Shown: positions 1 to 4,500 of the stretch, one piece after another
How positions within the stretch are numbered: position 1 is the stretch's first letter
Layout: every line of letters begins with the position of its first letter
IMG/VR virus record: IMGVR_UViG_2681813263_000013
From: a virus
Taxonomy: Duplodnaviria; Heunggongvirae; Uroviricota; Caudoviricetes
Reading direction: 5' to 3' (one strand)
Length of the DNA: 4,500 bases
Translations under genes and position numbers: made by a program
Notes under the pieces: model-generated
Told to the model about the DNA's origin: nothing
Seen by the model: the letters and a program-made list of their open reading frames with translations, nothing else
Databases searched by the model: none

Positions 1-1
1 G

Positions 2-655
2 GAAAGATATTTCCCCTGCGTGAATATCTCCGGTGAGCCGGAGGCGTATTTCCGTATGTCGCCGGAAGACTGGCTGCAGGCAGAGATGCAGGGTGAGATT
101 GTGGCACTGGTCCACAGCCACCCCGGTGGTCTGCCCTGGCTGAGTGAGGCCGACCGGCGGCTGCAGGTGCAGAGTGATTTGCCGTGGTGGCTGGTCTGCC
201 GGGGGGCGATTCACAAGTTCCGCTGTGTGCCACATCTTACCGGGCGGCGCTTTGAGCACGGGGTGACGGACTGTTACACGCTGTTCCGGGATGCTTACCA
301 TCTGGCGGGGATTGAGATGCCGGATTTTCATCGTGAGGATGACTGGTGGCGTCACGGTCAGAATCTCTATCTGGATAATCTGGAGGCCACAGGGCTGTAT
401 CAGGTGCCGTTGTCAGCGGCGCAGCCGGGCGATGTGCTGCTGTGCTGTTTTGGTTCATCGGTGCCGAATCATGCCGCCATTTACTGCGGTGACGGCGGGC
501 TGCTGCACCATATTCCTGAACAACTGAGCAAACGAGAGAGGTACACCGACAAATGGCAGCGACGCACACACTCCCTCTGGCGTCACCGGGCATGGCACGC
601 ATCTGCCTTTACGGGGATTTGCAACGATTTGGCCGCCGCATCGACCTTCGTGTGA
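2..655 (+). CDS. K: Tail tip assembly protein K (JAB/MPN metalloprotease-like plus NlpC/P60 cysteine-peptidase-like domains); 5' end probably truncated by the window edge
   Basis: Frame is open from the first in-frame codon (2) to TGA at 653..655. Translation carries a JAMM motif H-x-H-x7-S-x2-D (HSHPGGLPWLSEAD; His codons 113..115 and 119..121, Ser 143..145, Asp 152..154). It also has an NlpC/P60-type Cys (DCYTLF, codon 272..274) and His (NHAAIY, codon 470..472). Sequence matches lambda gpK as I recall it. ATG at 56 corresponds to the classical 199-aa lambda start; the ORF track uses GTG at 20. Spacing to I and J reproduces lambda exactly. Confidence 0.93.
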   Translation, partial: ERYFPCVNISGEPEAYFRMSPEDWLQAEMQGEIVALVHSHPGGLPWLSEADRRLQVQSDLPWWLVCRGAIHKFRCVPHLTGRRFEHGVTDCYTLFRDAYHLAGIEMPDFHREDDWWRHGQNLYLDNLEATGLYQVPLSAAQPGDVLLCCFGSSVPNHAAIYCGDGGLLHHIPEQLSKRERYTDKWQRRTHSLWRHRAWHASAFTGICNDLAAASTFV

Positions 656-1224
656 AAACGGGTGCCGAAGCCATCCGGGCGATGGCCACACAGCTCCCTG
701 CGTTTCGTCAGAAGCTGAGCGACGGCTGGTATCAGGTGCGTATTGCCGGGCAGGATGTTAGCACGTCCGGATTAACGGCGCAGTTACATGAGGCTCTGCC
801 TGACGGCGCTGTGATTCATATTGTTCCCAGAGTCGCCGGGGCCAAGTCAGGTGGTGTATTCCAGATTGTCCTGGGAGCAGCCGCCATTGCCGGATCATTC
901 TTTACCGCCGGAGCCACCCTTGCAGCATGGGGGGCTGCCATTGGTGCCGGTGGTATGACCGGCATTCTGTTTTCTCTCGGTGCCAGTATGGTGCTCGGCG
1001 GTGTGGCTCAGATGCTGGCACCGAAAGCCAGAACTCCCCGCACACAGACAACGGATAACGGTAAGCAGAACACCTATTTCTCCTCACTGGATAACATGGT
1101 TGCCCAGGGCAATGTTATGCCTGTTCTGTATGGTGAAATGCGCGTGGGGTCACGTGTGGTATCTCAGGAGATCAGCACGGCAGACGAAGGGGACGGTGGT
1201 CAGGTTGTGGTGATTGGTCGCTGA
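553..1224 (+). CDS. I: Tail tip assembly protein I (ubiquitin-like N-terminal region, Gly/Ala-rich hydrophobic central segment)
   Basis: ATG at 553 with GAGG about 10 nt upstream; 223 codons; stop TGA 1222..1224. Starts 103 nt inside K in a different frame, as in lambda. Translation MAATHTLPLASPGMARICLYGDLQRFGRRIDLRVKTGAEAIRA... matches lambda gpI from memory. Confidence 0.93.
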   Translation: MAATHTLPLASPGMARICLYGDLQRFGRRIDLRVKTGAEAIRAMATQLPAFRQKLSDGWYQVRIAGQDVSTSGLTAQLHEALPDGAVIHIVPRVAGAKSGGVFQIVLGAAAIAGSFFTAGATLAAWGAAIGAGGMTGILFSLGASMVLGGVAQMLAPKARTPRTQTTDNGKQNTYFSSLDNMVAQGNVMPVLYGEMRVGSRVVSQEISTADEGDGGQVVVIGR

Positions 1225-1242
1225 TGCAAAATGTTTTATGTG

Positions 1243-1270
1243 AAACCGCCTGCGGGCGGTTTTGTCGTTT
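1243..1270 (+). terminator. Putative stem-loop in the I-J spacer (8-bp stem aaaccgcc / ggcggttt, 4-nt loop tgcg) followed by a T-rich tract tgtcgttt
   Basis: Read directly: 1243..1250 is the reverse complement of 1255..1262, followed by a T-rich run to 1270. It lies between the I stop (1224) and the J start (1285). Function as a terminator is unproven. Confidence 0.2.
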
Positions 1271-1284
1271 ATGGAGCATGACGA

Positions 1285-1298
1285 ATGGGTAAAGGCAG
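1285..1298 (+). other. J: Start of host-specificity gene J (first 14 nt, atgggtaaaggcag, encoding M-G-K-G), interrupted at 1298/1299
   Basis: ATG at 1285 lies 61 nt after the I stop, as in lambda, with GGAG at 1273..1276. The remainder of the J 5' end (S-S-K-G-H-T-P-R-E-A-K-D-N-L-K-S-T-Q-L-L-S-V-I-D-A-I-S-E) is found on the minus strand at 1878..1796, so the gene is broken here by an inversion. Confidence 0.7.
1289..1298. repeat. Left arm of a perfect 10-bp inverted repeat (gtaaaggcag) at the inversion breakpoint
   Basis: gtaaaggcag at 1289..1298 is the exact reverse complement of ctgcctttac at 1879..1888. Both adjoining bases differ, so the repeat is exactly 10 bp. Confidence 0.85.
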
Positions 1299-1794
1299 AT
1301 GCGCGCCATGCCCGGTGACGCCAGAGGGAGTGTGTGCGTCGCTGCCATTTGTCGGTGTACCTCTCTCGTTTGCTCAGTTGTTCAGGAATATGGTGCAGCA
1401 GCCCGCCGTCACCGCAGTAAATGGCGGCATGATTCGGCACCGATGAACCAAAACAGCACAGCAGCACATCGCCCGGCTGTGCCTCTGTCAGTGCGACACG
1501 GTAAAAACCCGTCACCTCCATATTGTCAAGATAGAGATTCTGACCGTTACGCCACCAGTCATCCCCGCGATGAAAATCCGGCATCTCAATCCCTGCCAGA
1601 TGATAAGCATCCCGGAACAGCGTGTAACAGTCCGTCACCCCGTGCTCAAAGCGCCGCCCGGTGAGATGCGGCACACAGCGGAACTTGTGAATCGCCCCCC
1701 GGCAGACCAGCCACCACGGCAAATCACTCTGCACCTGCAGCCGCCGGTCAGCCTCACTCAGCCAGGGCAGACCACCGGGATGACTGTGGACCAG
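1299..1794 (-). pseudogene. K: Inverted, 5'-truncated second copy of K (K'), diverged from copy 1 (about 93% amino-acid identity by eye); its 3' end overlaps the first 50 nt of a second I gene (minus strand 1348..1299)
   Basis: The reverse complement of 1299..1794 aligns colinearly with + strand 107..602, with scattered and clustered substitutions. The minus-strand translation reproduces K from LVHSHPGG through the NlpC/P60 Cys and His to RHRAW. The ORF-track minus ORF 1150..1734 is this copy reading through into unrelated sequence. The minus strand 1348..1299 encodes MAATHTLPLASPGMAR, the start of I'. Confidence 0.8.
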
Positions 1795-1795
1795 N

Positions 1796-1878
1796 CTTCG
1801 CTGATGGCATCGATCACACTCAGCAGCTGCGTGGACTTCAGGTTGTCCTTCGCTTCGCGCGGGGTATGCCCCTTACTG
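1796..1878 (-). pseudogene. J: Inverted fragment of the J 5' end (J nt 15..97, codons 5..32), joined to K' at an ambiguous base
   Basis: Reverse complement of 1796..1878 reads agc agt aag ggg cat acc ccg cgc gaa gcg aag gac aac ctg aag tcc acg cag ctg ctg agt gtg atc gat gcc atc agc gaa g, which is S-S-K-G-H-T-P-R-E-A-K-D-N-L-K-S-T-Q-L-L-S-V-I-D-A-I-S-E and continues the MGKG at 1285..1298. Position 1795 is n. Confidence 0.8.
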
Positions 1879-1888
1879 CTGCCTTTAC
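1879..1888. repeat. Right arm of the 10-bp inverted repeat (ctgcctttac)
   Basis: Exact reverse complement of 1289..1298. It lies within codons 17..20 of the second I allele. Confidence 0.85.
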
Positions 1889-2232
1889 GGGGATTTACAA
1901 CGATTTGGTCGCCGCATCGACCTTCGTGTGAAAACGGGGGCTGAAGCCATCCGGGCACTGGCCACACAGCTCCCGGCGTTTCGTCAGAAACTGAGTGACG
2001 GCTGGTATCAGGTGCGCATTGCCGGGCGTGATGCAGGTGAAACCGAATTGTCTGCCCGTCTTAATGAGCCGCTGGCAAATGGTGCAGTGATCCACATAGT
2101 ACCGCGTCTGGTGGGAGCTAAAAGTGGCGGTGTGTTTCAGGCGGTGCTGGGGGCGGCTGTTATGGCGGTTGCTATATGGATGCCGGGGGTAGGAATTATG
2201 GCGAGTAATCTGCTGTTTTCTCTCGGTGCCAG
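1879..2232 (+). CDS. I: Second, diverged allele of tail assembly protein I (I'), partial: codons about 18..135 on the + strand, first 17 codons displaced onto the minus strand (1348..1299), 3' end lost in the N gap
   Basis: In frame with I numbering, the translation reads (I)CLYGDLQRFGRRIDLRVKTGAEAIRALATQLPAFRQKLSDGWYQVRIAGRDAGETELSARLNEPLANGAVIHIVPRLVGAKSGGVFQAVLGAAVMAVAIWMPGVGIMASNLLFSLGA. The first roughly 150 nt are nearly identical to copy 1 (603..750); the centre is strongly diverged. The ORF track starts this at GTG 1928 and runs it through the N gap as X residues. Confidence 0.8.
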
Positions 2233-2913: not shown

Positions 2914-3047
2914 GTGCTGGGTACGGAAGTGAAATATGACACGCCGATCACCCGGACCATCACGTCGGCAAACATTGACCGACTGCGTTTTACCTTCGGT
3001 GTACAGGCACTGGTGGAAACCACCTCAAAGGGAGACAGGAATCCGTC
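2914..3047 (+). CDS. J: Host specificity protein J, internal fragment on a separate contig end (about residues 90..133 in lambda J numbering)
   Basis: Frame 1 translation VLGTEVKYDTPITRTITSANIDRLRFTFGVQALVETTSKGDRNP matches lambda J from memory. Bounded by N runs on both sides. Confidence 0.85.
2965..3047. repeat. 83-nt direct repeat copy A (partner 3198..3280, 8 mismatches, about 90% identity) flanking the second gap
   Basis: Both copies encode SANIDRL-R-(F or L)-TFGVQALVETTSKGDRNP, the same segment of J. This points to overlapping contig ends from two J alleles rather than a real tandem repeat. Confidence 0.8.
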
Positions 3048-3197
3048 NNNNNNNNNNNNNNNNNNNNNNNNNNNNNNNNNNNNNNNNNNNNNNNNNNNNN
3101 NNNNNNNNNNNNNNNNNNNNNNNNNNNNNNNNNNNNNNNNNNNNNNNNNNNNNNNNNNNNNNNNNNNNNNNNNNNNNNNNNNNNNNNNNNNNNNNNN
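3048..3197. other. Assembly gap (150 N), probably spurious (negative gap)
   Basis: The flanks are near-identical copies of the same J segment, so the true sequence is probably continuous without an insertion. Confidence 0.85.
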
Positions 3198-4500
3198 TCG
3201 GCAAACATCGACCGTCTGCGCCTGACCTTCGGTGTGCAGGCACTGGTGGAAACCACCTCAAAGGGTGACCGGAATCCGTCGGAAGTCCGCCTGCTGGTTC
3301 AGATACAGCGTAACGGTGGCTGGGTGACGGAAAAAGACATCACCATTAAGGGCAAAACCACTTCGCAGTATCTGGCCTCGGTGGTGGTGGGTAACCTGCC
3401 GCCGCGCCCGTTTAATATCCGGATGCGCAGGATGACACCGGACAGCACCACAGACCAGCTGCAGAACAAAACGCTCTGGTCGTCATACACCGAAATCATC
3501 GATGTGAAACAGTGCTACCCGAACACGGCACTGGTCGGCGTACAGGTGGATTCGGAGCAGTTCGGCAGCCAGCAGGTGAGCCGTAATTATCATCTTCGCG
3601 GGCGCATTCTGCAGGTGCCGTCGAACTATAACCCGCAGACGCGGCAATACAGCGGTATCTGGGACGGAACGTTAAAACCGGCATACAGCAACAACATGGC
3701 CTGGTGTCTGTGGGATATGCTGACCCATCCGCGCTATGGCATGGGGAAACGTCTTGGTGCGGCAGATGTGGATAAATGGGCGCTGTATGTCATCGGCCAG
3801 TACTGTGACCAGTCGGTGCCGGACGGCTTTGGCAGCACGGAGCCGCGCATCACCTGTAATGCCTGGCTGACCACACAGCGCAAGGCGTGGGATGTGCTCA
3901 GTGATTTCTGCTCGGCGATGCGCTGTATGCCGGTATGGAACGGGCAGACGCTGACGTTCGTGCAGGACCGACAGTCGGATAAGGTGTGGGCCTATAACCG
4001 CAGTAATGTGGTGATGCCGGATGATGGCGCGCCGTTCCGCTACAGTTTCAGCGCCCTGAAAGACCGCCATAATGCCGTTGAGGTGAACTGGATTGACCCG
4101 GATAACGGCTGGGAGACGGCGACAGAGCTTGTGGAGGATACGCAGGCCATTGTCCGTTACGGTCGTAACGTCACGAAGATGGATGCCTTTGGCTGTACCA
4201 GCCGGGGGCAGGCACACCGCGCCGGGCTGTGGCTGATTAAAACGGAACTGCTGGAGACGCAGACCGTGGATTTCAGCGTGGGTGCTGAAGGGCTTCGTCA
4301 TGTACCGGGCGATGTCATTGAAATCTGCGATGATGACTATGCCGGTATCCGCACCGGCGGGCGCGTGCTGGCGGTGAACAGCCAGACCCGGACGCTGACG
4401 CTCGACCGTGAAATCACGCTGCCATCCTCCGGCACCACGCTGATAAGCCTGGTTGACGGGCAGGGGAATCCGGTCAGCGTGGAGGTCCAGTCCGTCACCG
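3198..4500 (+). CDS. J: Host specificity protein J (tail tip central fibre protein), internal portion; 5' end in gap, 3' end beyond the window
   Basis: Frame 3 is open for about 434 codons from 3198 to the window end, which is why it is absent from the ORF track (no stop in window). Translation SANIDRLRLTFGVQALVETTSKGDRNPSEVRLLVQIQRNGGWVTEKDITIKGKTTSQYLASVVVGNLPPRPFNIRMRRMTPDSTTDQLQNKTLWSSYTEIIDVKQCYPNTALVGVQVDSEQFGSQQVSRNYHLRGRILQVPSNYNPQTRQYSGIWDG... matches lambda J from memory with a few substitutions. Confidence 0.95.

Follow-up and report, generated by a model that had tools for sequence, protein, structure and literature searches.

The junction at position 1795, where the 5' end of a J gene meets the interior of a second K gene across a single n, is most probably an artefact of scaffolding and gap closure, a patchwork of two similar prophages and not a genuine fusion or duplication; we put the probability of this reading at roughly 0.88. 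The window, that is, the whole 4,500-nt stretch of DNA that was analysed, is record CXDG01000260.1, a complete 4.5-kb scaffold of the fragmented Shigella sonnei draft GCA_001252135.1. Its ambiguous letters comprise the isolated n at 1795 and two N runs, at 2233-2913 (681 N) and 3048-3197 (150 N). All called sequence can be assigned to the genes K, I and J of lambda-like phages and prophages, to which it is 86-100% identical; K-I-J DNA identity to lambda, 434 and HK630 amounts to 95-96%. Precomputed Pfam matches on the called genes include NLPC_P60 (PF00877), PF14464, Lambda_tail_I (PF06805) and J domains, such that K carries both a JAB and an NlpC/P60 domain, I carries Lambda_tail_I and J carries the domains of its own family.

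As a ruler for gene order we used lambda imm434, with K at 1556-2155 (a longer ORF starts at 1412), I at 2053-2724 and J from 2785. Projected onto this ruler, the window resolves into six pieces (c1 to c6) that are non-colinear over K, I and J; the prophage-2 alleles of K and I are denoted K' and I'.

1-1298, plus strand (c1): prophage-1 K (3' 655 nt), I (553-1224) and J nt 1-14.
1289-1298 (joint A): gtaaaggcag, a 10-nt overlap in which J nt 5-14 equal the reverse complement of the K' 3' end; putative false gap closure.
1289-1794, minus strand (c2): K' fragment of the prophage-2 allele, equivalent to copy-1 positions 107-612 and to lambda 1607-2112.
1795-1795: single n, a residual scaffold gap between two non-adjacent pieces.
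1796-1888, minus strand (c3): J nt 97 to 5 (MGKGSSKGHTPREAKDNLKSTQLLSVIDAISE).
1879-1888 (joint B): ctgcctttac, a 10-nt overlap that is the reciprocal of joint A; likewise a putative false gap closure.
1879-2232, plus strand (c4): K' 3' end and the 5' two-thirds of I', prophage-2 allele.
2233-2913: 681 N, a scaffold gap; the natural distance is about 562 nt.
2914-3047, plus strand (c5): J nt 265-398, prophage-1 allele.
3048-3197: 150 N, a scaffold gap between pieces that share 83 nt of J.
3198-4500, plus strand (c6): J nt 316-1618, of which the first ~240 nt are a second allele and the remainder is identical to prophage-1 J.

Comparison of the window with itself recovers the repeated pieces directly. 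Positions 1289-1794 are the reverse complement of 107-612 (94.1% over 506 nt), 1879-2033 match 603-757 (92.3%), and 2965-3047 match 3198-3280 (90.4%). Judged by this self-comparison and by the lambda ruler, the matches are long and high in identity and do not arise by chance. Piece c1 is colinear with lambda imm434 1501-2798 at 95.6% identity and c3 matches lambda J at 97.8%, while c2 lacks both the 5' part of K' and its last 14 codons. Positions 1243-1268, in the spacer between I and J, contain a GC-rich hairpin with a T run behind it (aaaccgcctgcgggcggttttgtcgttt) and look like a candidate intrinsic terminator; phage 434 record OL657226.1 has an annotated 'terminator' feature beneath its K-I-J match.

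The lambda ruler and the self-comparison place the junction exactly where the sequence-only reading had put it: J is present up to nt 97 and, across the n at 1795, K' follows from LVHSHPGG (copy-1 position 107). The break in J falls after the first base of codon 33. Entry into K' had been set at about codon 30; it is instead at codon 18 of the 199-aa lambda K, which is codon 66 of the 247-aa form. As also anticipated, undoing the inversion leaves the order K-I-J(1..97)|K'(107..)-I' in place, and the statement that no lambda-like genome makes this J-to-K join holds for the 5,426 complete E. coli genomes that were searched, none of which contains it; breakpoints in the one similar record, E. coli FY26, differ. 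When J is read across the one-base n it is out of frame with K' (..AISE-X-WSTVIPVVCPG-stop), and thus the junction yields no in-frame J-K' fusion protein. The joint at the n shows no microhomology, and the only ambiguous base among 3,668 called bases sits exactly on the J|K' breakpoint. In gap-filling tools, a single N is, according to their documentation, what is left when a gap estimate is negative or when the gap is exhausted with no overlap; our literature search did not find a published statement of this convention. Under this convention, the n at 1795 would record a failed meeting of read-based extensions.

Two further joints delimit the inverted pieces on either side of the n. Where c1 and c2 meet, their alignments have exactly gtaaaggcag (1289-1298) in common, and those of c3 and c4 share its complement ctgcctttac (1879-1888). 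Because the bases flanking the 10-mer differ, the inverted match, on which the sequence-only reading did not remark, is maximal and measures exactly 10 nt. In intact prophages the 10-mer is native at both sites, namely J nt 5-14 and the 3' end of K. If partners are exchanged at the 10-mer, the K' 3' end (…RASAFTGIYNDLVAASTFV-stop), the I' start and the J start all become intact again, and every ORF restored by such uncrossing is intact. All 10 nt of the inverted match, which is present at 603-612 as well, agree in the S. sonnei, FDAARGOS_944 and FY26 alleles. Lambda itself (imm434 2789-2798) retains 9 of the 10 bases (gtaaaggAag), which would rule out this false closure there. Comparison of ~2.1 kb of prophage 1 with the reverse complement of a ~2.1-kb prophage-2-like locus gave 9 inverted 10-mers against an expectation of about 4, and no inverted match of at least 12 nt. 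A target-site duplication left by an IS element was considered as the origin of the 10-mer and rejected, since the 10-mer is native in intact prophages and no IS sequence occurs in the window.

Once uncrossed, the pieces of the window are found in many genomes. The restored K'-I' sequence (850 nt) is colinear in 3,239 of the 5,426 complete E. coli genomes, with a best match of 99.3% in one piece, and 4,212 of them carry the restored I-J(1-97) colinearly. Neither joint A nor joint B is spanned in any of the 5,426, matches ending exactly at the 10-mer in both cases, and an exact DNA search of genome, viral and metagenome contig collections did not find the joint-A 52-mer. The n joint is 'covered' among these genomes in FY26 only, through two pieces that lie 561 bp apart and have other breakpoints. 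Fragments of K and J occur in 1-14 copies per E. coli genome (median 3-4) and are a typical multi-copy repeat.

The same comparison assigns the pieces to different prophage alleles. In the closed chromosome CP023645.1, K, I and J are colinear, and the I protein encoded there is identical to that of the window; for this neighbouring I protein there are 605 indexed blocks. Piece c1 matches CP023645.1 colinearly at 99.5%, and both c3 and c5 match its J (prophage 1) at 100%. This identity marks c5 as the prophage-1 J allele; its match to the FDAARGOS_944 allele is 93.3%. By contrast, c2 is 98.8% identical to the prophage K of FDAARGOS_944, where K' continues directly into I', and c4 is 100% identical to FDAARGOS_944 6497-6850, contiguous there with K'. 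Piece c6 is composite: its first 287 nt are FDAARGOS_944-like, and of its 15 mismatches to CP023645.1, 14 fall in 3198-3437 and one at 3632, with none over the last 868 nt. A search through I' homologues for prophage 2 in a closed S. sonnei chromosome reached CP030783.2 and a Shigella flexneri contig, both of which carry other alleles (91-99%). K and K' are 94.1% identical, and I and I' align for ~155 nt, after which only a 20-nt island is shared. The two K-I copies, far from being near-identical, thus match different prophage alleles, which argues against a recent duplication.

The 150-N gap sets the same scaffold at odds with itself. The 83 nt of J common to its two sides (2965-3047 and 3198-3280) are 90.4% identical, and lambda coordinates across it run backwards, from 3182 to 3100. 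On the left the copy is 100% prophage-1 allele; on the right it begins as the second allele and becomes identical to prophage 1 after ~240 nt. Because the same 83 nt of J stand on both sides, a true adjacency is impossible. The 681-N gap is flanked by lambda positions 2486 and 3049, corresponding to 6850 and 7413 in FDAARGOS_944. It exceeds the natural I'-to-J distance (~562 nt) by ~119 nt, an excess typical of a paired-read estimate.

Several features of the record are those of faulty scaffolding and gap closure. An N stands at the join, whose flanks are adjacent in no related complete genome examined. The record is a draft scaffold of six pieces with three N runs, at least two alleles and small contigs derived from repeats. 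It also holds another adjacency, at the 150-N gap, that is physically impossible. We propose that K, I and J were present in at least two similar prophages of the source S. sonnei genome, which was assembled as a short-read draft, and that a paired-read scaffolder linked the small contigs in wrong order and orientation. The erroneous order would have begun with K-I of prophage 1 and continued with K' of prophage 2 and the 5' end of J, both inverted, before I' of prophage 2 and, finally, two overlapping J alleles. A gap-filler would then have extended the contig edges base by base with reads, and two gaps would have been closed once the extensions shared 10 nt; closure at the 10 nt where J nt 5-14 match the K 3' end by chance in inverted orientation would produce both 'inversion' joints. 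Between K' and J no overlap would have been found, leaving an unclosable gap that shrank to one n, and two further gaps, of 681 and 150 N, would have remained open. Since inverted 10-mers are frequent by chance, false closure is easy once repeat contigs are wrongly oriented. We infer that reads spanning the joints are lacking.

Documented software behaves in this manner. GapFiller trims gap edges and adds one nucleotide at a time from reads (PMC3446322). It treats a gap as closed once the two extensions share 10 nt or more (default n = 10) and the inserted length deviates by no more than 50 nt from the estimate (PMC3446322). The overlap at each of the two joints is a maximal one of 10 nt, exactly at this minimum. 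The Sanger assembly pipeline combines Velvet, SSPACE with scaffolding down to five linking pairs and 120 rounds of GapFiller, after which contigs are sorted by size; 299 S. sonnei isolates were assembled in this way, with a mean of 405 contigs, and the authors themselves state that greedy steps 'can lead to false joins' (PMC5320598). Circumstantial evidence, consisting of the ENA-type accession, the species and the number 260 borne by a 4.5-kb record, suggests that GCA_001252135.1 passed through SSPACE and GapFiller in this pipeline; the accession was not found in two supplementary files of PMC5320598.

The sequence-only reading had ascribed the junction to an assembler that stitched together paths through a repeat graph, with the n at the stitch. 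Repeat copies were apparently stitched and the n does mark the place, but a path through the graph itself does not account for it as well; stitching after assembly, by a scaffolder and a gap-filler, is the most likely course. A de Bruijn node behind the 10-nt joints would require k ~11, which is implausible. The ends of the pieces lie 11, 10 and 20 nt from the nearest allele difference, and we considered taking this as proof of de Bruijn contig ends; the argument was dropped because at 6-10% divergence any position is that close to a difference.

A chain reminiscent of the window is deposited for E. coli FY26 (NZ_CP101741.1 4149725-4158285, RefSeq 'complete'), where it reads L-K-I-J(598 nt)|K-I-J(446 nt)|K-I-hyp-J. 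At the border of L and K the chain has a repeat of 65 nt, and within J it steps back by 235 nt; its units are divergent alleles with 96%, 89% and 86% identity to lambda. Its deposition means that such K-I-J' arrays exist at least in deposited sequence. Among the 5,426 genomes, the FY26 J|K joint is unique to this record, and the chain may itself be a misassembly. We therefore did not retain FY26 as support for real K-I-J' arrays, given that its joints are unique to the record and link divergent alleles.

The alternatives all take some part of the scaffold to be real DNA. One is a tandem or segmental rearrangement in which illegitimate recombination between two prophages joined K-I-J(1..97) to K'(from codon 18)-I', the n being one uncalled base. 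The order K-I-J'|K'-I' is self-consistent after the inversion is undone and the FY26 chain is similar, yet we regard this origin as highly improbable: the copies are different alleles (94% in K, with I and I' diverging), the joint is out of frame and devoid of microhomology, and the sole ambiguous base happens to lie on the breakpoint. The joint is missing from all 5,426 genomes, and the FY26 joints lie elsewhere in J and K and are confined to FY26. Moreover, the same scaffold holds another adjacency that cannot be real, and the inversion around the joint would require two more events. Nor do these observations support the idea of a tandem K-I duplication with a breakpoint in J, which had been raised from the sequence; rather than a continuous called sequence, the joint is an n found in none of the 5,426 genomes, the adjacent ORF is a singleton, and the chimeric product is known from one record. 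A real inversion by recombination between the inverted 10-mers is very unlikely but would account for the reciprocal joints; it could have happened inside a single prophage or have paired J of prophage 1 with K of prophage 2. On this view the n would remain a scaffold gap, behind which a long inverted segment may be concealed. A genuine inversion between the 10-mers would leave two reciprocal joints, and both are seen (1289-1298 and 1879-1888). The alleles fit as well: K1-I1-J(1-14) leads into inverted K', and J of prophage-1 type, also inverted, leads into K'/I'. What lies between the joints, however, is not the natural interval, which is gene I (~677 nt), flipped over; it consists of K'(107-602), the n and J(15-97), two non-adjacent fragments. 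Neither joint occurs in the 5,426 genomes even though the 10-mer pair sits in thousands of prophages, and the chimeric ORF appears in one record only of a clonal species. The 10-mer is one of several chance inverted 10-mers, the length of the overlap is that of a software threshold, and the near-zero gap between c2 and c3 contradicts a large inverted interval.

Chimeric templates formed in vitro, by polymerase template switching at short complementarity during amplification or library preparation and then assembled, are the least probable source of the joints. Both are indeed inverted joins at 10 nt of complementarity, and among chimeras of multiple displacement amplification (MDA) more than 85% are inverted, and a complementary stretch of 2-21 nt marks the start of more than 70% of junctions (PMC1855051). 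There is no sign of an amplified library, however, and rare individual chimeras would have to outcompete the true path twice at the same site; template switching also leaves the n and the overlapping J pieces unexplained, such that a scaffolding error would be needed anyway. Lastly, a garbled scaffold might be partly truthful, in that a strain-specific rearrangement of two lambdoid prophages took place at the 10-nt chance inverted match and flipped the stretch from J of the one to K of the other, possibly together with an FY26-like K-I-J' chain; we give this combination only an outside chance. Taken together, the data favour false scaffolding followed by false gap closure.

The false joins have left traces in protein databases. 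In the ORF at 1150-1734 on the minus strand, the K' NlpC/P60 domain is followed by a nonsense C-terminus that derives from the I-J spacer. The ORF is recorded exactly once, in GCA_001252135.1/CXDG01000260.1, and its protein is present in nr as CSQ77247.1, 'Tail assembly protein [Shigella sonnei]', which forms a one-member cluster among ~15 billion proteins. The entry is also misnamed, the protein being K and not I. Fragmentation of I' recurs in other drafts: positions 1887-2232 are 100% identical to a lone 367-bp contig, ACBKYT010000482.1, of an independent S. sonnei assembly, and the I' protein cluster has 113 members, mostly 'partial' and cut at about 108-133 aa. This predominance of partial members points to the 5' region of I' as a habitual contig break in short-read drafts.

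The biological significance of the junction is small; the tail genes of the prophages are K, I and J of the ordinary lambda kind. Its relevance is to data quality, as false joins in a public draft record create chimeric ORFs, CSQ77247.1 among them. Where misoriented repeat contigs share an inverted 10-mer by chance, a 10-nt closure rule can fuse them with no N left as a flag. Single Ns and exact 10-nt overlaps are warning signs when draft prophage regions are scanned for rearrangements, fusions or duplications.

Among known systems, the tail-tip region of phage lambda (Lambdavirus) provides the parts, as the K/I overlap and the J start MGKGSSKGHTPREAKDNLK are both found in the window. The natural order in lambda is L-K-I-J on one strand, whereas the fragments of the window are inverted, repeated and interleaved between alleles. 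To our knowledge, closure at a chance inverted 10-mer has no published description. Large chromosomal inversions through homologous recombination between inversely oriented prophages are known from E. coli O157 and Shigella; these cross over in long homologous stretches, so that gene order is kept across the joint. The window resembles them in its two lambdoid prophages and reciprocal joints, but its crossover would be a 10-nt chance match between non-homologous genes. The FY26 chain shares with the window a partial J followed directly by K of another allele, in repeated fashion, but its breakpoints are at J nt 598 and 446, its K units start from near the beginning of the gene, and it contains neither an N nor an inversion. 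Greedy scaffolding and gap filling differ in that the pipeline is documented for its own assemblies, whereas for GCA_001252135.1 we infer its use. Their products are like the window in the N runs of estimated size between small contigs, in the two closures at exactly the 10-nt minimum of GapFiller, in a locus that is a multi-copy repeat (PMC5320598, PMC3446322), and in a species and accession style that are those of the 299 S. sonnei assemblies of the Sanger pipeline (PMC5320598).
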